DNA from: Ylistrum balloti | Lineage: Eukaryota | Direction of reading: 5' to 3' | Assembly (NCBI RefSeq): GCF_031769215.1 | Contig: NW_026782349.1 | Location: 303,634-367,633 of the forward strand | Length of the DNA: 64,000 bases | Shown here: positions 49,801 through 64,000 of the stretch, in pieces | How positions within the stretch are numbered: the stretch's first letter is position 1 | Layout of the letters: each line of letters starts with the position of its first letter | Made by a program: the position numbers and the translations under genes | Notes under the pieces: generated by a model | The model's database searches: none | Seen by the model: the letters and a program-made list of their open reading frames with translations, nothing else | Told to the model about the DNA's origin: nothing

Positions 49801-51445
49801 TTTTCTCTCATCCTCAGATTGTCAGGTCAATGATATGATGTCACAGTAACAACTCACTGATGTCATGTCACGTGTACCTAATAAAGCCAGCAGCGTAAGA
49901 GAAAAATTATCATTTACCCACTTGTTGATGAGATGAGGTGATCACAACCCTTAGAAAAGATGTTTAAGTTGCAAACACTTGCTAAGCCACATGTTTGCTA
50001 ACTTATTTGCCTTTCCCCTCGGGCTGAGATTCACCTAATTCTATACTGATGTATACAAATGGATCACTCGTAACTTAACCATTAAAAATGCACAATTTAG
50101 TCAAATAACTTGAAATCAACCAGATATGAAATAAATTACTTCGAATTAAATTGTGCTTCATTAATGATAAGAAATATTGTAAATAGTGTCTGCTATGATG
50201 AGGTGTTTTTTTTTCTTGGAAAAGCCAGTGGTACATTTGGACTAGAGACCTTGATCGCACAGTAAAGATTCTATTAGAAGAATTGCAATATGATTACATT
50301 TATACATCAAATAATTCACCCATTGGTGCTGATAGCTGAGACATTGATGAAAAAATGGTATTTGATTAGAAGAAAAAGCTGATGTGGAAAGTAGATGACA
50401 GATGTATGAATTTATGTCCATCTCCAATAACTTAGAGTGTTGGAATACTGTAAACAAAACTAAAATGTGTAGCCATACAAGTCAAGATTTCCTTATATGA
50501 TTAGTAAAATATAAAGAAAACCTTGGTAGGTGTCACATTTCAGCATAGATTGCTCATAAGGTGTATCAAACTAATTTTATTTGTAATGGGAACTTAGACT
50601 GTAATGTGGTACAGAAAAAAAAACTTGTTTAATTCTGTAGGGCTAGTTTATTGGTATTTAATTTCATACAAGTCGATGAACTGGTGTCCTATAACAGACA
50701 TAACAGCTATTTTCTGAGATTTTCATTCACTGCAAATATGTTCACCATGTAATCCATTTTATGCTATATTTATTATTAAAAATTATGCAGGATATATGAC
50801 GGCAAAAAGGCCTTTTATTACTTTACAGAATTGTATATCATCATCGACCATGGTGAGTCATATAATGTCATTAAAAGTAGGTTTTGCAAAGAATCAGAAA
50901 TATTTATGCCTCTGAATGACAAACTGTAATTCATATGTATTTTTCTATACTCCTTTTCATTATGATGATATATATGTTATAATAGAATGTATTCAAATGA
51001 AAAGAAATATCACAGAAAAATAGTGATACATACATTGTTCTTCATCTTATAAGTTTTAATTTTCTTTGTAAATTGTATATTGTTGTAAATAAAAGTTACA
51101 AATAATTCATAGTCAGAAACCAACAAAAGTGCTTGACTAAATAAGATTTGTTTTCTATTGTGATTGATCTGGTTTTTTTTAAGCAAGTATATTTTGATAA
51201 GGCTGTGTATGTGTATATAAATCAAGATGTTTTCATCCTAAAATAAAATAAGGATATTTTCGTTTTTTGTGATAGATGTGAGATATGACATTTTAATTAC
51301 CTCTTGTCTTACTTACCTGCTGAATTGTTTGTGTCGTGATACAATTGCAAATGCACCTAATCACGGGACTGCCTAAGAAATAACAACAGCACAACTAGTA
51401 TAAATCCTGGAATATTCTGGAATCATCTCTGTTTTCATCACTTAG

Positions 51446-51470
51446 ATTCATTCATTCATTCATTCATTTC
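51446..51470. repeat. (CATT)6 microsatellite = (AATG)n 3' tail of the minus-strand LINE
   Basis: Perfect tetranucleotide repeats about 200 bp past the ORF2 stop on the element strand. Confidence 0.8.
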
Positions 51471-51674
51471 TTTATTCCTCCAAAAGATGAAGAGTTACAA
51501 ATAAATGAAAAAGATATTAACATATTTTAAGATACATGTACACAAGATAGTGAGATTAGTTGTCGATCAAATAAAGAAGTAAATATCCAGAAAGAGAAAG
51601 TGAGCAATTAAATTACTAAAGCATTCCAAATGACACCAATGCAGTCGATGATAGCAACCTTTTATCAAAAGAAG

Positions 51675-54600
51675 TTACTGAAATGTAAGGCGAGACACCT
51701 TTTCGGAGAACACACAACAATCACGTAAAAAGTGGAAGAAAAGGTCATCGTATCCTCCGAAAATGTCTTGAATATTTTCGGGAGGAGAACAGAGAAATGT
51801 GGCTACCTGAGCCTCACGAGAAGCCTGGTCAACAGTTATATAAACATGTACAGGGTAATCATTTACAATTTTGGTAAATATATCATCACGTAGAGACAAA
51901 ATATCTATATGTGAGCAGTCTAATAAACAATGTGCGACTGCGTCATTTACAAACGTGCTGCACTTTGCACACATTAGCTGACAAGAAGGAGACATAGTCC
52001 ATAATTTAGCAACGCTAGCACAAATGTTATCCAAAGATGGGAAACGTTTTGAAAGAAGCCAGATATTTGAAGGCCTAATTTCGATTTGCAAATAGTTAAA
52101 CCTAGAAAAGTCACTGCTGAGAAGAAGACGTTGTTTCCAGTCAGTAGTGTAATTACGCAATAAGACATTTTTTGTCAAAAATTTCCATTTTTGTTTCGAT
52201 GGAAAGTACCCTGATTGCAAAAATGTATGTAACACATCAAGTAAATCATGCTCATGAAATATGTTCAAAACATCTGAGACAAGATTTTTTTCTTCTTTAC
52301 AGACTTCAAAATAACTATGAAAAAGACGAAGCATAAACAATCTTTTAGCGGAAAAATGAGTATCAAGTCTACATAGACTAGCAAAAAAACGAAGTTTGGC
52401 TAAATCGACCTCGACTTGTATAGAAGTAAGACCTAACATGCTTAGAGCGATGTCTGAACGTGTGCGACGAGAGAACCTTTGAATGAGTTTTGCACAAAGG
52501 TGATGTACAGTTTCAATGCGAGACCAGTCTGAATCTGTCAGAGAAAACCAGAGTTCACAGCCGAAGAGGCATCTTGGCATAACAACAGACTTGTATAATT
52601 TCACACCCGTGATAGGGTTCATACCAGTATCAAAAAAGTTGCAGTTAAGTAGCGCAAAACATTGACTGCGTAGCCTGTTAACAATGTCATGGATATCTGG
52701 AGATCCAATTTTGAACTTGTTAAGAAAAATGCCGACATGTTTCGTATTGGCTGACTCCGAAACAATCCCATTACCCAGAACCCATTTTCGGGTGTTTTTG
52801 GAATAGGCATTTTTGCTTTCATTAAAGACAATGACAGTTGACTTAGATGCATTATACATAAAACGCCACTTAATGCTGTACGCATAGCAGACATCCATAA
52901 GATTGTCCAGGCCACGTTTACAAAGTGAGAGCAATGTGATATCGTCGGCTTGCGTCGGGCAAGTGACGTTGGTGCCATGGATAGAAAATGAATAACTTGA
53001 TGAGCACAGTTCATTCAGTAAATCATTAATAAAAACAGTGTACAGCCAAGGGGAGATAATGCTTCCCTGACGCGTGCCCTGGCAAACTTTGAACCAATCG
53101 GAAACAAACCCTTGATGAAGAACGGCACTAAACATATTTTCGTATAGTGAAGCAATAATATGGACGAATTTCGAGTTAAAACCAATATTAGCCAATTTAA
53201 ACAAAAGGCCATTATGCCAGACGCAATCAAAGGCTTTGGCAGCGTCAAGGAAGCAAGCAAACAACTTACTTTCGTTTTCACGGGCATAGGAAATCGATTC
53301 ATGTACTAAGAAAGAGGTCATTGTACTACTGACATTCTTTTGAAAACCATTTTGCAAAGGATTAATCTTGAAGAGATCTGTTGCCTCTAAACGCACCAGT
53401 AGTAATTTTTCAAAAACTTTTGAAAGAACAGGAAGTAAGGAAATTGCTCGATAACTATCAGGGTCACATTTAGGTTTGTTATGACCTTTGTATAAAGTAC
53501 AAATAAGCCCCTTGGTGAGCAAAGGTGGAACATATTCTAATCTGTGGAAGGCGTTGAACAACATGCATAGGCAATAGTACAAAATATCATCAGCAAAAAT
53601 TAAGTGTTCATAGACTATGTGATCATATCCCGCCGCCTTGCCTGTAGGGAGTGTCTTGCAGACGCGTTTGACCTCATCCAAAGAGAAATCTTCAAAAGAG
53701 ACATTACCTAAATCATGGGTAGAAAGAATACGTTTTACAGAGTCGTCAATTTTTTCCTTAAACTGGGCATCGAAACACTCGCAGGATGAATAGGAATAAA
53801 CATCTGCAAAATATTTTCCCCAGAGAAGCGCAAGTCGGCTAGGATCTCGGATAACGTCGCCGTTAAAATTCATTTCAGCCCCAGCGACGCCCGATGTTTT
53901 TGAGCAACGTTTTCTTACCATCGACCAAAAAGACTTCTGATTCAGATCAGCATAGTTTTCAATTTCAGTATTTAAATTAACAATGTGTTCCTCGGACACC
54001 TGTCTGTGTCTGTTTCTGAAAACACGTTTGGCTTCCTTATAATTACGGTAGGATAAGGAATTACGGGGTCGACCTTGACTGACCCACACTTGACGACACT
54101 TCCACATGTTACGATGAAGATCTCTGAGCTTATCGTTCCAATAAGGTTTCAAGAATTTACAAAATTTACGTTTTGGCAAAGTATGCTCTGATGCTTTTAG
54201 CAAACACGACAGAAGCTCGCGTGAGTAATCGTCAACCGCTTCCTTGGAATTAAATTCCTGTACAGTGTGGAGGGATGAAAGATTGATACGTGAGACAAGA
54301 TCTTGACGGTAGTCATCAACATTCCTTGCGACTCCTGTGGTGATCCATTTGAAAGACAAACGATAGTGTTTTTCACAAGAATTTTCGTCTGAAGCCAACT
54401 TAGGAAATACCAATTCACAAATCATCGGTCTGTGGTTCGACACGTCAAGGTAACCACGTTCTAAAATAGAGCATTCACTCACAAGATCTAACAAGTTAGT
54501 GTTAATTATAATGTGGTCAATAAGGGAGGTAGGACCGTCAATTGAGTGAACATATGAATGTAAAGGACCTTTACAGAGGTTGGAAGTTGACAGCGCAAAC

Positions 54601-55208
54601 AACTGTAAACGGTCTAGACAATTTTGAAGAATTCTTCCACGTTGATCTTCGTATCCGGGAACACGTGAGCCTTGTAAACGGGCATTAAAATCCCCCATGA
54701 TAATTACAGGGCCATACAAGGAAAAAGTCGAGCAGAGCTCATCTAGCTTTTGAACATATTCGATGTACATGTCCATGCCGTATCGGGATGTCGGAAAATA
54801 AACTTGCAGGATATGAATAGTTTCGAAGTCAAGGACGAGTTTGATAATGACAATCCTGTCATCATCGGAGTCCACAACTGACACACGATCGTTAAATTTA
54901 CTGTGCCACATCAACGCGACGCCTCCTTTACGAGAACGATGGTCAGCTAGCGGATGCAGTGAAAAGTCTGAAATGGCGAAATAATGGTAGTTATGATGAA
55001 TACTACCGAATAAATGTAGGTTCTCTTCATAAAGCCAGTGTTCAGATATTCCACATATGTCCACGCGTTCCGTCGTCAGCGCGTCATGAAGATGAGAGGC
55101 AGCTGACATTATGCCAGTAACGTTCCACGACATCAAGCGAATGTTTGACATAACCAGGGCAAAGATGGATAAACTGAGAATGTAAACCGATCTAGTCGAA
55201 CCCGCCAT
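51675..55208 (-). CDS. LINE ORF2 protein, 1177 aa: apurinic-like endonuclease + reverse transcriptase + Cys-rich C-terminal domain
   Basis: Uninterrupted ORF with conserved endonuclease and RT catalytic motifs (YADD-type QADD). Confidence 0.9.
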   Translation of the reverse strand: MAGSTRSVYILSLSIFALVMSNIRLMSWNVTGIMSAASHLHDALTTERVDICGISEHWLYEENLHLFGSIHHNYHYFAISDFSLHPLADHRSRKGGVALMWHSKFNDRVSVVDSDDDRIVIIKLVLDFETIHILQVYFPTSRYGMDMYIEYVQKLDELCSTFSLYGPVIIMGDFNARLQGSRVPGYEDQRGRILQNCLDRLQLFALSTSNLCKGPLHSYVHSIDGPTSLIDHIIINTNLLDLVSECSILERGYLDVSNHRPMICELVFPKLASDENSCEKHYRLSFKWITTGVARNVDDYRQDLVSRINLSSLHTVQEFNSKEAVDDYSRELLSCLLKASEHTLPKRKFCKFLKPYWNDKLRDLHRNMWKCRQVWVSQGRPRNSLSYRNYKEAKRVFRNRHRQVSEEHIVNLNTEIENYADLNQKSFWSMVRKRCSKTSGVAGAEMNFNGDVIRDPSRLALLWGKYFADVYSYSSCECFDAQFKEKIDDSVKRILSTHDLGNVSFEDFSLDEVKRVCKTLPTGKAAGYDHIVYEHLIFADDILYYCLCMLFNAFHRLEYVPPLLTKGLICTLYKGHNKPKCDPDSYRAISLLPVLSKVFEKLLLVRLEATDLFKINPLQNGFQKNVSSTMTSFLVHESISYARENESKLFACFLDAAKAFDCVWHNGLLFKLANIGFNSKFVHIIASLYENMFSAVLHQGFVSDWFKVCQGTRQGSIISPWLYTVFINDLLNELCSSSYSFSIHGTNVTCPTQADDITLLSLCKRGLDNLMDVCYAYSIKWRFMYNASKSTVIVFNESKNAYSKNTRKWVLGNGIVSESANTKHVGIFLNKFKIGSPDIHDIVNRLRSQCFALLNCNFFDTGMNPITGVKLYKSVVMPRCLFGCELWFSLTDSDWSRIETVHHLCAKLIQRFSRRTRSDIALSMLGLTSIQVEVDLAKLRFFASLCRLDTHFSAKRLFMLRLFHSYFEVCKEEKNLVSDVLNIFHEHDLLDVLHTFLQSGYFPSKQKWKFLTKNVLLRNYTTDWKQRLLLSSDFSRFNYLQIEIRPSNIWLLSKRFPSLDNICASVAKLWTMSPSCQLMCAKCSTFVNDAVAHCLLDCSHIDILSLRDDIFTKIVNDYPVHVYITVDQASREAQVATFLCSPPENIQDIFGGYDDLFFHFLRDCCVFSEKVSRLTFQ

Positions 55209-56874
55209 CAGGTGTGGGCGCGTTTTCAGCCTCGTTTCCGTAGAACCGGTTATTGGAAACCCATTTCCGACACCTGATACCTTTGGGCCAGAAGTTGTCT
55301 TCCTTCGTTTTGGGGAAATCAGAAGAAATAACGTTCACCCTAGCAGAGACACAGAACTTTCGCTTACTTCTAAGAAGGCGAACAAAAGTGGTATTGACCC
55401 CACGGTCATGTAGGTAACTTCTTATATCGTCAACAGAACAAGATTCCGCTGACATACCGGTAAGAAATAAACGTGTAGTTTTGTGTCTGGAAACCGCCAC
55501 AAAACCACAAGATGATCCATGAGAATTTGCCGGCGGAGGAGTTCTCGCTCTTTGGAGACCATCTGGACTAAGTGAGCTGGGAGGCGACTGTATTAACTGA
55601 GATGACAGCTGGCCACAAGATGGGTTTGTATGAGAAGACGAACCATCATTAGGCGATGACAGAGCATAACCTTGAGAAGTGGTCTCATCACATGAAACGG
55701 TCCTTCCTTCATCCTGTACAGAGGAGGTTTGGACATCATGACGGTGAAAAGCCTGAGAAGGATCAAGACGAGCTGCATGTGGGGCTGTATGAGGAATGTT
55801 AGGAGGCGAAATGCCTTTCTCAGTCGGGAGCGGCTTTAAGCCATCGTGGACAAATTCCTCAAACTTGGTTAACTGAGCACTAAGTTCCTCGGCGAAAGCT
55901 TTCACAGCAATGTCAGTTGTGTGTTTTGCTTTTCCTGCAATATTTTTCATCTCTGAGTCCATTTGCCGGATGCGAGATTTAAGAGACGAAACACCACTAG
56001 AAGCCGAGGAGGCATTGGTTAAGGCAGTCTGGACGTCCTTAGCGAAGGTAGCGATCTGATCGTTCATATCTCGAATGTCTTTGTGAACAGCCGACGAATT
56101 GCCAAAGCGGACGTCGTTCAGGCGCGAGATACCGCTGCTGTTATCGTTGATTAACTTCGAAATGTTGCCGATCTCAGAAGCAGTCGACTTCCTAAATTTT
56201 TCCAGAGAAAGTAATTTGGAAGCTATCAAGTGGATATTATCAGCAAAATACGACTGGGGAGAACTTTGCTTAATGTCAATGTCAAACACTTTATTAATAG
56301 ACACACAAGCTTTATTTAACTGTGATTTAAGGGATGACATTTCTTGGTCCAGTTTCTTTTGAAGCTCCAACGCCGAGTCAATACGGACTTTGGAAGTCTC
56401 CCTGGATTCGTGAAGCAAAGCGTGCAAATTTGCCACCTCAAGCTTAAGTGATTCAAACTCGGAGCGCGAGATAGGGGCAGGCTGCTCTATAACGTTGCTC
56501 GAACAGTCCAAAACCGAAGTTTCTAGCTGACTATTCATCCTTGGAAGTTTTTGAGAGGAGAAAAGATCTACTATCTCACAAACGGATTCGCCATCCAAGA
56601 ACTGTTGTAAAGCGAAACAGTCTTTTGCATATTTCAAGTAGGCTTGACACTTGAGGGTATTCTTACGAGTAACGAGAGTAGAGGTCGGGCAACCGTCAAT
56701 ACCCTTAGCGCGGTCGAAAAGAATGGCCCGGTACCAGGCAATTTTACTTTCAGCATTTGATGAAAGTTCACAGAGTTTGGCAATGTACTCATTTTTGGGA
56801 AGCTTGAATAAAGAATCGTCAAACGATTTCGCAGCAGGAGACGGGTCTTGAGAGGACTCACTGATTGACGCCAT
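55192..56874 (-). CDS. LINE ORF1 protein, 560 aa (coiled-coil-rich middle, Ser/Pro-rich region, basic C-terminal domain FVRLLRSKRKF...)
   Basis: Uninterrupted ORF immediately upstream of ORF2, overlapping it by 17 nt in a different frame. Confidence 0.75.
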   Translation of the reverse strand: MASISESSQDPSPAAKSFDDSLFKLPKNEYIAKLCELSSNAESKIAWYRAILFDRAKGIDGCPTSTLVTRKNTLKCQAYLKYAKDCFALQQFLDGESVCEIVDLFSSQKLPRMNSQLETSVLDCSSNVIEQPAPISRSEFESLKLEVANLHALLHESRETSKVRIDSALELQKKLDQEMSSLKSQLNKACVSINKVFDIDIKQSSPQSYFADNIHLIASKLLSLEKFRKSTASEIGNISKLINDNSSGISRLNDVRFGNSSAVHKDIRDMNDQIATFAKDVQTALTNASSASSGVSSLKSRIRQMDSEMKNIAGKAKHTTDIAVKAFAEELSAQLTKFEEFVHDGLKPLPTEKGISPPNIPHTAPHAARLDPSQAFHRHDVQTSSVQDEGRTVSCDETTSQGYALSSPNDGSSSHTNPSCGQLSSQLIQSPPSSLSPDGLQRARTPPPANSHGSSCGFVAVSRHKTTRLFLTGMSAESCSVDDIRSYLHDRGVNTTFVRLLRSKRKFCVSARVNVISSDFPKTKEDNFWPKGIRCRKWVSNNRFYGNEAENAPTPDGGFD

Positions 56875-57349
56875 GATCGGAACTGGTAATAATGCTTGAA
56901 ACTACAAACACGTACGTGAAAATATAAAGTTATTGCGACCAATAAAGGGAGACGCAGTTTCGCCTCCGTGAGCACAATGGGCAACACAGCTTAATAATAG
57001 CGGATCATCAGACCGTGACGAAAATTCCAGCGTACCCACTCTACTGTAATATGGTGTGTATATACAAAACTACCTATATAGCGAGGCTAAATATAGAGTG
57101 TATGAAGTCATATAGTCACACCAAAAAACACTCAATAGCAGATCAGAAGTTTTTCCAAAATGACACAATGAGTCAAATTCAACACTTTATCAACCGTATA
57201 TATGTATATACCTTGTATCTCCAGGAAGACCGTATAAATGTAGGTGAGAATACAAAAGATTGCCGGAGCGAATTCAAGGCGACCGCCATCCTCCTCGGCC
57301 TCGTTTTCATACTTAGATTAGATAAAGAGATTTTTAGAAAACATTTGAA

Positions 57350-58040
57350 AGCACAATTAACAAAAACATTGCATCAACAAATTAACAGATATACCATCAA
57401 CAAATTAACAGATATACCATCAACAAATTAACAGATATACCATCAACAAATTAACAGATATACCATCAACAAATGAACAGATATACCATCAACAAATGAA
57501 CAGATATACCATCAACAAATGAACAGATATACCATCAACAAATTAACAGATATACCATCAACAAATGAACAGATATACCATCAACAAATTAACAGATATA
57601 CCATCAACAAAATACCATCAACAAATGAACAGATATACCATCAACAAAATACCATCAACAAATGAACAGATATACCATCAACAAATTAACAGATATACCA
57701 TCAACAAATTAACAGATATACCATCAACAAATTAACAGATATACCATCAACAAATGAACTGATATACCATCAACAGATATACCATCAACAAATTAACATA
57801 TATACCATCAACAGATATACCATCAACAAATTAACAGATATACCATCAACAGATATACCATCAACAAATTAACAGATATACCATCAACAAATGAACAGAT
57901 ATACCATCAACAAATGAACAGATATACCATCAACAAATTAACAGATATACCATCAACAAATTAACATATATACCATCAACAGATATACCATCAACAAATT
58001 AACAGATATACCATCAACAAATTAACAGATATACCATCAT
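57350..58040. repeat. 23-bp minisatellite x about 30 (caacaaattaacagatataccat / caacaaatgaacagatataccat)
   Basis: Lies 0.5 kb upstream (5') of LINE ORF1 on the element strand. Confidence 0.95.
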
Positions 58041-61000: not shown

Positions 61001-61556
61001 ATGTTAACACAGCAATCTTTCTTCTAGAAGGCTAAGTGGATAACAGTGTATAGATGTGATTATGTTGTACTTTATTGGGACAAATTCATTTGTCAAAATA
61101 AAGATTGATATGTTTTCAATTTTTTGGTTTTGTTTTACATAAAACAATACATATTTGTTACTGTGACCAAGTGAATATCAATTTACAGGTGTTAGTTTTC
61201 AGTAAATGGAGAACATGGTGATAGAATCACATGGATGTACCTACAGTTATATTAAATAGAATGTGAAGCATCAGCTGTGTATACATCAATCTACAGAGAC
61301 TTGCAAGCGCTGTTCCTGAAAAGTGTGAAAAGTGAGAGATAATGATAAACATATAATTACAAGAAAAGAAAAATGAGAAAAAGCAATATGACGGGAAACA
61401 TAAAAAGTTAGTGATTAAAATAAATCACTAGAATGGGTAGATATGATTACTACTGCTGCAATATTTTGTGCTCATTTGTTCAAATTTGTGCAGAATATCA
61501 CAGGAAATATTGAACTAAAAGTCAATGAAAAAAAAAATGACAAAATATACCACTGT

Positions 61557-64000
61557 AACACAGTAAACTTTCTGTTCCATAAGTGTAGACACATCCTGCT
61601 GATGTTCTGCAAGTGTAGACACATCCTACTGATGTTATGACAACGTAGACACTTCCTGCAGATGTTCTGCAATTGTAGACACATCCTGCTGATGTTCTGC
61701 AAGTGTAGACACATCCTACTGATGTTCTGCAAGTGTAGACACATCCTACTGATGTTCTGCAAGTGTAAACACATCCTGGTGATGTTCTGAGAGTGTAGAC
61801 ACATCCCTCTAATATTCTGCAGTGTAGACACATCCTTCTTATGTTCTGCAAGTGTAGACACATCCTTCTTATGTTCTGTAAGTGTAGACACATCCTACTG
61901 ATGTTCTGCAAGTGTAGACACATCCTTCTTATGTTCTGCAAGTGTAGACACATCCTTCTTATGTTCTGTAAGTGTAGACACATCCTGCTGATGTTCTGCA
62001 GTGTAGACACATTCTTCTGGTGTTCTGACAACGTAGACACTTCCTGCAGATGTTCTGCAAGTGTAAACACATCCTGCTGATGTTCTGCAAGTGTAGACAC
62101 ATCCCTCTGATTTTCTGCAAGTGTAGACACATCCTAAAGATGTTATGCAAGTGTAGAGACATCCTGCTGATGTTCTGCAAGTGTAGTCACTTCCTGTTGA
62201 TGTTCAGCAAGTGTAAACACATCCTGCTGATGTTCTGGAGTGTAGACACATTCTTCTGGTGTTCTGACAACGTAGACACTTCCTGCAGATGTTCTGCAAT
62301 TGTAGACACATCCCTCTGATGTTCTGCAAGTGTAGACACATCCCTCTGATGTTCTGCAAGTGTAGACACATCCCTCTGATGTTCTGCAGTATAGACACAT
62401 CCTTCTTATGTTCTGCAAGTGTAGACACATCCTTCTTATGTTCTGCAATTGTAGACACATCTTGCTGATGTTCTGCAAGTGTAAACACATCCTGCTGATG
62501 TTCTGCAAGTGTAGACACATCCTACTGATGTTCTGCAAGTGTAAACACATCCTACTGATGTTCAGCAAGTGTAAACACATCCTGCTGATGTTCTGGAGTG
62601 TAGACACATTCTTCTGGTGTTCTGACAGCGTAGACACTTCCTGCAGATGTTCTGCAATTGTAGACACATCTTGTTGATGTTCTCCAAGTGTAGACACATC
62701 CTACTGATGTTCTGCAAGTGTAAACACATCCTGGTGATGTTCTGCAAGTGTAGACACATCCCTCTGATGTTCTGCAAGTGTAGACACATCCTGCTGATGT
62801 TCTGCAAGTGTAAACACATCCTGCAGATGTTCTGACAACGTAGACACTTCCTGCAGATGTTCTGCAATTGTAGACACATCCTGCTGATGTTCTGCAAGTG
62901 TAGACACATCCTACTGATGTTCTGCAAGTGTAAACACATCCTGCTGATGTTCTGCAAGTGTAGACACATCCTACTGATGTTATGCAAGTGTAGAGACATC
63001 TTGTCGATGTTCTGCAAGTGTAGACACATCCTGTTGATGTTCTGCAAGTGTAGACACATCCTGTTGATGTTCTGCAAGTGTAGACACATCCTTCTTATGT
63101 TCTGCAAGTGTAGACACATCCTGCTGATGTTCTGCAAGTGTAGAGACATCTGATGTGCAAGTGTGATGTTCTGCAAGTGTAGACACATCCCTCTGATGTT
63201 CTGACAGCGTAGACACTTCCTGCAGATGTTCTGACAACGTAGACACATCCTGCAGATGTTCTGCAATTGTAGACACATGGTGCTGATGTTCTGCAAGTGT
63301 AAACACATCCTGCTGATGTTCTGCAAGTGTAGACACATCCTACTGATGTTCTGCAAGTGTAGAGACATCCTGCAGATGTTCTGCAATTGTAGACACATCT
63401 TGCTGATGTTCTGCAAGTGTAGACACATCCCTCTGATGTTCTGCAAGTGTAGACACATCTTGTTGATGTTCTGCAAGTGTAAACACATCCTGTTGATGTT
63501 CTGCAATTGTAAACACATGGTACTGATGTTCTGCAAGTGTAGACACATCCCTCTAATGTTCTGCAGTATAGACACATCCTTCTTATGTTCTGCAAGTGTA
63601 GACACATCCTTCTTATGTTCTGCAAGTGTAGACACATCCCTCTGATGTTCTGCAAGTGTAGATACATCCTACTGATGTTATGCAAGTGTAGAGACATCTT
63701 GTTGATGTTCTACAATTGTAGACACATCCTGCTGTTCTGCAAGTGTAAACACATCCTGCTGATGTTCTGCAAGTGTAGACACATCCCTCTGATGTTCTGC
63801 AAGTGTAGATACATCCTACTGATGTTATGCAAGTGTAGAGACATCTTGTTGATGTTCTGCAAGTGTAGACACATTCTTCTGGTGTTCTGACAACGTAGAC
63901 ACTTCCTGCAGATGTTCTGCAATTGTAGACACATCCTGCTGATGTTCTTCAAGTGTAGACACATCTTGTTGATGTTCTCCAAATGTAAACACATCCTGTT
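61557..64000. repeat. 30-bp satellite (ctgatgttctgcaagtgtagacacatcctg), at least 80 copies, continues past window end
   Basis: Near-perfect tandem copies with point variants; stop-free frames on both strands. Confidence 0.95.

Follow-up and report, generated by a model that had tools for sequence, protein, structure and literature searches.

In the 64,000-nt stretch of Ylistrum balloti DNA analyzed here (contig NW_026782349.1, positions 303,634 to 367,633; hereafter the window), the minus-strand interval 51446-57302 very probably represents a single APE-type retrotransposon lacking long terminal repeats (non-LTR), a full-length copy without interruptions that was inserted recently and falls within the bivalve Proto2 lineage of RTE elements (RTE superfamily). 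Although of an ordinary kind, it makes a good candidate for activity, and its competence for retrotransposition is plausible. Open reading frames (ORFs) were read from a program-made list, domains were assigned with Pfam, and the tail was delimited with Tandem Repeats Finder.

Boundaries of the element

The element measures 5857 bp (5.86 kb) and carries two intact ORFs between a 5′ and a 3′ untranslated region (UTR) (Table 1). It lacks terminal repeats and ends in a 3′ tail flanked by a target-site duplication, which identifies it as a long interspersed nuclear element (LINE). The 5′ end, which reads GAGGCCGAGG, was placed at ~57302 by the imperfect duplication and by an abrupt step in CpG content. 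The 23 nt running from the last AAT of the tail onward aligned to positions 57319-57300 (AATCTAAGT-ATGAAAAC-GAG versus AATCTAAGTGATGAAAACAGAG) with a score of 16, whereas 3000 random 23-mers drawn from the window, locally aligned to the sequence upstream of ORF1, reached 14.5 at best. We read this alignment as a 14−15-bp target-site duplication, CTAAGT[G]ATGAAAAC, at 57316-57303 and 51445-31, the length of which may be 17−18 bp if the ambiguous AAT is included. The composition step coincided exactly with the duplication, providing an independent determination of the 5′ boundary.

The presence of both the 5′ UTR and the target-site duplication indicated that the copy is not visibly 5′-truncated. 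This result agrees with an earlier note, made from the letters of the sequence, which had described an apparently full-length LINE with an (AATG)n tail at 51446-57000; the tail and the 3′ end at 51446 were recovered as described, whereas the duplication and the CpG step put the 5′ end ~300 nt further upstream. That note had also proposed a search of the genome for near-identical copies bearing target-site duplications. The copy analyzed here has its imperfect duplication; BLAST at the nucleotide and translated levels detected the element nowhere else in the window, either as another copy or as a fragment. The UTRs showed no nucleotide similarity to the loci of related elements, except for the terminal motif described below. 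Upstream of the element, 57372-58039 is occupied by ~29 copies of a 23-bp unit, CATCAACAAATTAACAGATATAC (84−100% matches), starting 70 bp from the LINE 5′ end and outside the element. We considered whether this tandem array might be a set of 5′ UTR monomers but discarded the idea, since the array is located past the target-site duplication and contains no CpG.

Table 1 Features of the element and of its insertion site (positions in the window).
Feature	Position	Strand	Remarks
Target-site duplication, 3′ copy	51431..51445	.	reads CTAAGTGATGAAAAC on element strand; preceding AAT could be tail or target
(AATG)n microsatellite tail	51446..51468	-	period 4, 5.8 copies, 100% match (Tandem Repeats Finder)
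3′ UTR	51469..51674	-	206 nt, 29% GC; from ORF2 stop to tail
3′-terminal motif CTCTTC-N7-GGAGG-AATAAAG	51470..51494	-	potential 5-bp hairpin, then poly(A)-signal-like hexamer
ORF2	51675..55208	-	1177 aa, APE + reverse transcriptase + CCHC; alternative start Met20 at 55151
C-terminal CCHC, C1080-x2-C1083-x9-H1093-x4-C1098	51915..51971	-	all four residues invariant in 27 sequences
Reverse transcriptase domain, ORF2 residues 579-794	52827..53474	-	Pfam RVT_1 (PF00078), 1.8e-25
APE-type endonuclease domain, ORF2 residues 26-257	54438..55133	-	Pfam PF03372 (Exo_endo_phos, 2.4e-11) + PF14529
ORF1	55192..56874	-	560 aa
ORF1 C-terminal RRM-fold domain, residues ~466-550	55225..55479	-	fold
ORF1 coiled-coil-like region, residues ~127-340	55855..56496	-	hydrophobic periodicity; poor in Pro/Gly
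ORF1 N-terminal helical domain, residues ~15-125	56500..56832	-	conserved block; modelled bundle
5′ UTR	56875..57302	-	428 nt, 40% GC, CpG o/e 1.09, three short upstream ORFs
Target-site duplication, 5′ copy	57303..57316	.	reads CTAAGTATGAAAAC; one G missing vs 3′ copy

CpG content and age of the insertion

The observed-to-expected ratio (o/e) of CpG was 0.97 inside the element (239 CpG), equal to its GpC value, compared to 0.24 outside. The surrounding DNA of the window was CpG-depleted throughout (o/e 0.12−0.51 per 4 kb) and showed an excess of TpG/CpA (1.2−1.7). Counted per 250 bp, CpG varied from 6 to 21 across the element, with 7−8 in the 5′ UTR, and dropped to zero in the 1 kb past 57302. 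Undecayed CpG within DNA that is losing its CpG argues for a recent insertion, and we therefore conclude that the element entered this site recently. For the family as a whole, the survival of CpG in heavily CpG-depleted DNA could mean either evasion of germline methylation or recent arrival.

The CpG-poor background suggests that the window (1-64000) belongs to a region of heavy methylation, for example a gene body. Two young transposable elements alone differ from this background by their CpG o/e (~0.95−0.97). The other one, at 19522-20544 on the plus strand, is a 340-aa ORF matching DDE_3, HTH_Tnp_Tc3_2 and HTH_23, which identify a Tc1/mariner-type transposase; with a CpG o/e of 0.95, it is probably another recent insertion.

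ORF2 retains the invariant residues of its family

A frame of 1177 open codons in DNA of 36−40% GC cannot be a product of chance. APE and RVT_1 were the only domains found by Pfam in ORF2, which gave no match to RNase H, and the protein contained the FLDAAKAFD, QGTRQGS, QADD and C-x2-C-x9-H-x4-C motifs. The earlier description of an uninterrupted minus-strand ORF2 with all its APE, reverse transcriptase (RT) and C-terminal Cys motifs was thus borne out. The closest proteins among 5.8 billion were 37−39% identical to ORF2, all of them APE+RT proteins of ~1100−1250 aa from metagenomes or unannotated assemblies. No exact match to the ORF1 or ORF2 protein was returned from the public assemblies searched. 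The family is multicopy elsewhere, forming clusters of up to 181 member sequences. Four of the ORF2 relatives (P0004, P0021, P0033 and P0035) had been deposited as ‘reverse transcriptase family protein’ from Sedimenticola or Candidatus Thiodiazotropha metagenome-assembled genomes, on contigs of 3−6 kb; these LINE proteins most likely represent bivalve host DNA binned into symbiont genomes.

Alignment with 26 relatives revealed that all 63 of the family-invariant residues are kept in the window ORF2, among them E56, D173, N175, D231 and H259 in the endonuclease and D655, D661, Q714-G715, A754-D755-D756 and K789 in the RT, which aligns to residues 393-751 of human L1 ORF2p. ORF2 departed from the majority at 29 of the 189 columns conserved at ≥85%; this number lies within the range of other divergent members, and the catalytic sites were spared. 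The QADD motif, found in place of the usual F/YADD, is common to the window ORF2, its scallop relative and the related locus L088, the other relatives having VADD. The earlier note had allowed that private inactivating substitutions in catalytic residues might undo its reading; none was seen in this alignment, where no catalytic or family-invariant residue was lost.

A conserved 3′-terminal module precedes variable tails

The motif CTCT(C/T)C-N4-7-GGAGG-A0-2-AATAAAG was found directly before the tail in eight elements, namely the window element and the related loci L001-L005, L013 and L034, and the tail unit varied among them: AATG in the window element, AATC in L001, TCAG followed by TC in L002, TA in L003, ATT in L013 and TAC in L034. 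The tail of L005 is A/T-rich without a clear repeat unit, and the contig of L004 stops 6 nt past the motif, leaving the tail outside it. Each of the eight motifs folds into a predicted 5−6-bp hairpin (−4.3 to −7.2 kcal/mol). The motif may thus serve in 3′ recognition, as in LINEs of the stringent type.

ORF1 combines a helical N terminus, a coiled-coil-like middle and an RRM fold

A word-indexed protein search with ORF1 returned nothing at E ≤ 1e-3, and a full HMMER scan was needed to detect its homologues, 477 of which were found at this threshold among 1.84 billion cluster representatives. They share two conserved blocks, residues ~15-125 and ~445-546, the second with the pattern FxGV..R..LSGI...FWPxGVxCRxW. 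The N-terminal block was modelled as a bundle of 4−5 helices (predicted local distance difference test score, pLDDT, 80), and comparison of the model with known structures returned generic helical-bundle matches only, none of them informative. Residues 127-340 showed heptad-type hydrophobic periodicity (3.5 residues, z up to 7.8) and weak matches to coiled-coil families, and a Pro/Ser-rich linker follows at residues 345-455. No C-x2-C occurs in the ORF1 sequence, excluding a CCHC knuckle. A C-terminal domain of the L1 type is also absent, as the protein ends ~10 residues past the extra helix of the RRM and gave no Pfam match to Transposase_22. These results confirmed the earlier account of an uninterrupted 560-aa minus-strand ORF1 with a coiled-coil-like middle and no CCHC knuckles.

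A homologous ORF1 precedes ORF2 in L002-L008, L029, L052, L087 and L088. In addition, L015 contains an ORF at 2-613 ending in an RRM-like domain as in the window ORF1 (E 1.7e-5), upstream of a 23%-identical ORF2 at 697-3273, and this type of ORF1 therefore reaches past the immediate family. In the Khazina-Weichenrieder scheme of ORF1 types, summarised in PMC4120745, the window ORF1 is closest to type II, minus the C-terminal domain and plus an N-terminal domain. Type I ORF1p (I, Jockey, R1), in which the RRM is followed by CCHC knuckles, shares the RRM fold with the window protein but not the knuckles.

Is the intact copy competent?

Several observations weigh against the reading of this element as a recently inserted and potentially active Proto2 copy. 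The two copies of the target-site duplication differ by a 1-bp indel, which would not be anticipated if the insertion were brand-new, although this indel carries little statistical weight. Related elements had CpG o/e values of 0.73−1.04 in flanks that were not depleted, and the high CpG might reflect escape from methylation instead of youth. The S228-D229-H230 triplet of the L1 endonuclease reads S-N-H in the window ORF2. Covariation at the 3′ hairpin is thin, amounting to one compensatory pair (A-U to G-C) and two G-U changes. The clade was placed by proxy to a published tree, not by comparison with Proto2 reference sequences. Finally, the analysis concerns one copy, of which current activity is only a candidate property.

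One rival reading is that the copy looks intact but is dead, either because it is 5′-truncated within the true 5′ UTR and has lost its promoter, or because private missense changes have abolished its activity. We consider this possible but rather unlikely. It is favored by the lack of a second copy from which the consensus 5′ end could be set, as well as by the 29 departures from well-conserved columns, the S-N-H triplet and the indel in the duplication. However, the length of 5857 bp slightly exceeds the 5675-bp mean of the curated bivalve Proto2 consensus sequences (PMC10294476), and the 428-nt 5′ UTR is comparable to the at least 385−925 nt lying upstream of ORF1 in the relatives. The departures that could be checked (F650, QADD) proved common to the scallop relative, and no invariant residue was lost. 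The endonuclease triplet is itself variable in the family, being S-R-H in most relatives and S-D-H in L088; S-N-H thus looks like a lineage trait, as does QADD, rather than a private lesion. A full-length, recently inserted copy, plausibly competent, remains our preferred interpretation.

Clade assignment

The clade was addressed with the RT alignment of Martelossi et al. 2023 (PMC10294476, Data S2). Among the sequences of that file used for comparison, ORF2 residues 581-797 (217 aa) were 67.3% identical to A.purpuratus_14_LINE of the scallop Argopecten purpuratus and 22−32% identical to sequences labelled L1-Tx1 (22−25%), Nimb, Ingi, CR1-Zenon (30.4%) and RTE-X (30−32%). In Table S7 of the same source, A.purpuratus_14_LINE is classed in the Proto2 clade of the RTE superfamily by a maximum-likelihood tree and BLAST to RepeatPeps. 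The published tree joins it with M.yessoensis_17 and P.maximus_102 in a bivalve group sister to Capitella Proto2 references (PMC10294476). According to that study, Proto2 is bivalve-enriched, and its curated consensus sequences average 5675 bp. The clade question raised by the earlier note thus receives an answer: Proto2 of the RTE superfamily is strongly indicated by RT identity, by proxy to the published tree. The closest RT also suggests a pectinid or another bivalve as the probable host. The lack of RNase H and the simple-repeat (tetranucleotide) tail, in place of poly(A), are Proto2 traits. Architecture is not the defining criterion of Proto2, and the build of the window element fits the bivalve ‘Proto2’ group, with its mean of 5.7 kb.

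We also entertain, as a tentative and rather improbable suggestion, that the bivalve ‘Proto2’ elements, including the window copy, form a distinct lineage rather than ordinary Proto2/RTE. The features that may set them apart on an RTE-like RT are an undescribed type of ORF1, an L1/R1-like CCHC in ORF2, and the conserved 3′ hairpin-GGAGG-AAUAAAG preceding interchangeable microsatellite tails. This ORF1 type would join a conserved helical N-terminal domain that matches no known fold to a coiled coil and an RRM, and would lack both the zinc knuckle and the C-terminal domain of the L1 type.

Membership of the window element in another clade, such as L1/Tx1 or CR1/L2, is quite improbable. The layout of ORF1, with a coiled coil and an RRM, resembles that of type II (L1-like) ORF1p; a CCHC at the C terminus of ORF2 is a usual trait of L1, R1 and I and not of classical RTE, and the microsatellite tail also points this way. 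Among solved structures, the best match to ORF2 was human L1 ORF2p (1.7e-17), barely ahead of R2 (2.4e-16), in a search that could not separate L1 from R2 affinity, and the RT is about as similar to CR1-Zenon as to RTE-X. Against this stands the 67% identity to a sequence put in Proto2 by a published phylogeny that included Repbase references and by BLAST to RepeatPeps. Moreover, the L1-Tx1 sequences are far less similar (22−25%), and ORF1 lacks both Transposase_22 and the L1-type C-terminal domain. The next-nearest group in the database consists of ~950-aa APE+RT proteins of RTE-like architecture, which again argues for the Proto2/RTE assignment.

The ORF1/ORF2 junction

In the window element, ORF1 and ORF2 overlap by 17 nt, ORF2 being in the +1 frame relative to ORF1 with its ATG inside the junction sequence ...GAT GGC GGG TTC GAC TAG. 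In eight relatives, the distance from the ORF1 stop to the ORF2 AUG ranged from −146 to +126 nt and occurred in all three relative frames; it was, for example, −11 nt in L088, +18 nt in L002, +26 nt in both L004 and L087, +57 nt in L005, +126 nt in L007, and −146 or +25 nt in L006. This variation in spacing and frame indicated that ORF2 has a start of its own and does not depend on frameshifting. Leaky scanning is unlikely, given the strong context of the ORF1 AUG (A at −3 and G at +4). L1 and SART1 offer precedents for separate initiation of ORF2, and by analogy with them the window ORF2 probably starts independently, through reinitiation or a similar mechanism. The first 19 residues of ORF2 are poorly conserved, and the L088 start aligns at residues 19-20, beside Met20, which is located 41 nt past the ORF1 stop; a start at Met20 could therefore skip the unconserved residues. 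The earlier note had seen in the 17-nt overlap of different frames a sign of translational coupling or reinitiation. The overlap and the frames are as it described and separate initiation is an apt class, but the overlap is not conserved in the family and constitutes weak evidence for separate initiation.

It is very improbable that programmed ribosomal frameshifting (+1 or −2) in the overlap yields an ORF1-ORF2 fusion. In its favor, the overlap exists and 126 nt ahead of the ORF2 AUG are open in the ORF2 frame, but the overlap contains no slippery heptamer and the residues before Met20 are not conserved. In addition, the relatives have gaps of 18−126 nt or overlaps of 11−146 nt in all three frames, some with intervening stops in the ORF2 frame. 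On these comparative grounds, frameshifting was excluded as the route to ORF2 in the family. At L002:2472-2495, the two ORFs share one frame, with a single stop codon and 18 nt between them. Here, in contrast to the window element, a fusion protein might in theory arise by readthrough of the stop.

Proposed life cycle and implications

Host domestication, in which the two ORFs would be kept open by selection on a LINE-derived gene pair rather than by recent transposition, is suggested by the single copy with long intact ORFs in the window but is scarcely credible, given that the target-site duplication, tail, 3′ recognition motif and 5′ UTR of a mobile copy are all kept, that CpG is undecayed amid strongly CpG-depleted DNA, and that the family is multicopy elsewhere.

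For a mobile element of this structure, we propose the following cycle. A promoter in the 5′ UTR would drive a 5.86-kb bicistronic RNA. ORF1p, with its helical N-terminal domain, coiled-coil oligomerisation region and RRM-fold domain at the C terminus, would bind this RNA. Translation of ORF2p would begin at a separate AUG, that of Met1 within the last codons of ORF1 or that of Met20 past the ORF1 stop, through termination-reinitiation or a comparable unconventional process and, in view of the variable spacing and frames, not by frameshifting. ORF2p would then recognise the conserved 3′ end consisting of the small hairpin, GGAGG, AAUAAAG and the (AAUG)n tail. The APE domain would nick the target, and reverse transcription would be primed on the tail repeats, probably aided by pairing of the tail AAU with AAT in the target. 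The outcome would be the 14−18-bp target-site duplication.

Being intact and datable, the copy is a tangible candidate for a Proto2-type LINE that is active in a mollusc; in this phylum, retrotransposons have seen next to no experimental study. The copy also provides the full anatomy, including the ORF1 domains, the variable junction and the conserved 3′ module, for a group so far catalogued by its RT domain only, and this anatomy could steer annotation, searches for short interspersed nuclear element (SINE) partners and retrotransposition assays. Both the architecture of ORF1 and the 3′ module usefully enrich the description of the group without being surprising; the element is of a known kind and leaves the general concept of LINE function unchanged.

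Other features of the window

Overlapping ORFs of 184−357 aa without a Pfam match are found at 61522-63697 on the minus strand, where CpG o/e is extremely low (0.08) and TpG/CpA reaches 1.67. A 338-aa ORF at 10610-11626 on the plus strand matched Bflower_2 weakly (1.5e-12, in two stretches) and may represent repetitive coding or low-complexity sequence; the region around it, at 10−14 kb, has a GC skew of ~+0.2.

Comparison with known systems

The nearest known elements are the bivalve Proto2 LINEs A.purpuratus_14_LINE, M.yessoensis_17_LINE and P.maximus_102_LINE (PMC10294476). The RT core of the first is 67% identical to that of the window element and shares QADD and FLDAAKAFD, and the curated group averages 5.68 kb compared to 5.86 kb here. 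The element is identical to none of the sequences compared, exact 16−20-mers of it were not found in the compared portions of the Martelossi supplements (PMC10294476), and that study gives no account of ORF1 architecture, the ORF junction or the 3′ motif.

Classical RTE/BovB and vertebrate Proto2 elements (Proto2-Snek, ~3.3 kb; PMC7846101) belong, according to the literature, to the same superfamily as the window element by RT phylogeny, and resemble it in the short 3′ UTR, in tails made of simple repeats and in an APE+RT ORF2 that lacks RNase H. In contrast, they measure ~3.2−3.3 kb and have a rudimentary ORF1 or none (PMC3905857), whereas the window element encodes a 560-aa ORF1. Its ORF2 also carries ~230 extra C-terminal residues with the CCHC, a region to which relatives of 22−25% identity do not align.

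With L1, the window element shares an ORF1 coiled coil upstream of a single RRM-fold domain, the order of APE, linker, RT and CCHC in ORF2, and a bicistronic RNA requiring separate initiation of ORF2. It differs from L1 in its RT (22−25% identical to L1-Tx1), in the lack of an L1-type C-terminal domain or Transposase_22 in ORF1, in the extra conserved helical N-terminal domain of this protein, and in having a tetranucleotide-repeat tail instead of poly(A).

The closest parallel for the 3′ end is found in the eel UnaL2 and zebrafish ZfL2 elements, where, as reportedly described by Kajikawa and Okada, a 3′ stem-loop and short tail repeats are recognised by the RT. Those elements belong to the L2/Jockey superfamily, and the conserved block of the window family differs from theirs in also containing AAUAAAG; covariation support for its hairpin is weak. 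Both systems have a small conserved hairpin, predicted in the case of the window family, directly upstream of a tail of short units, and the window family keeps this hairpin while the tail unit changes.

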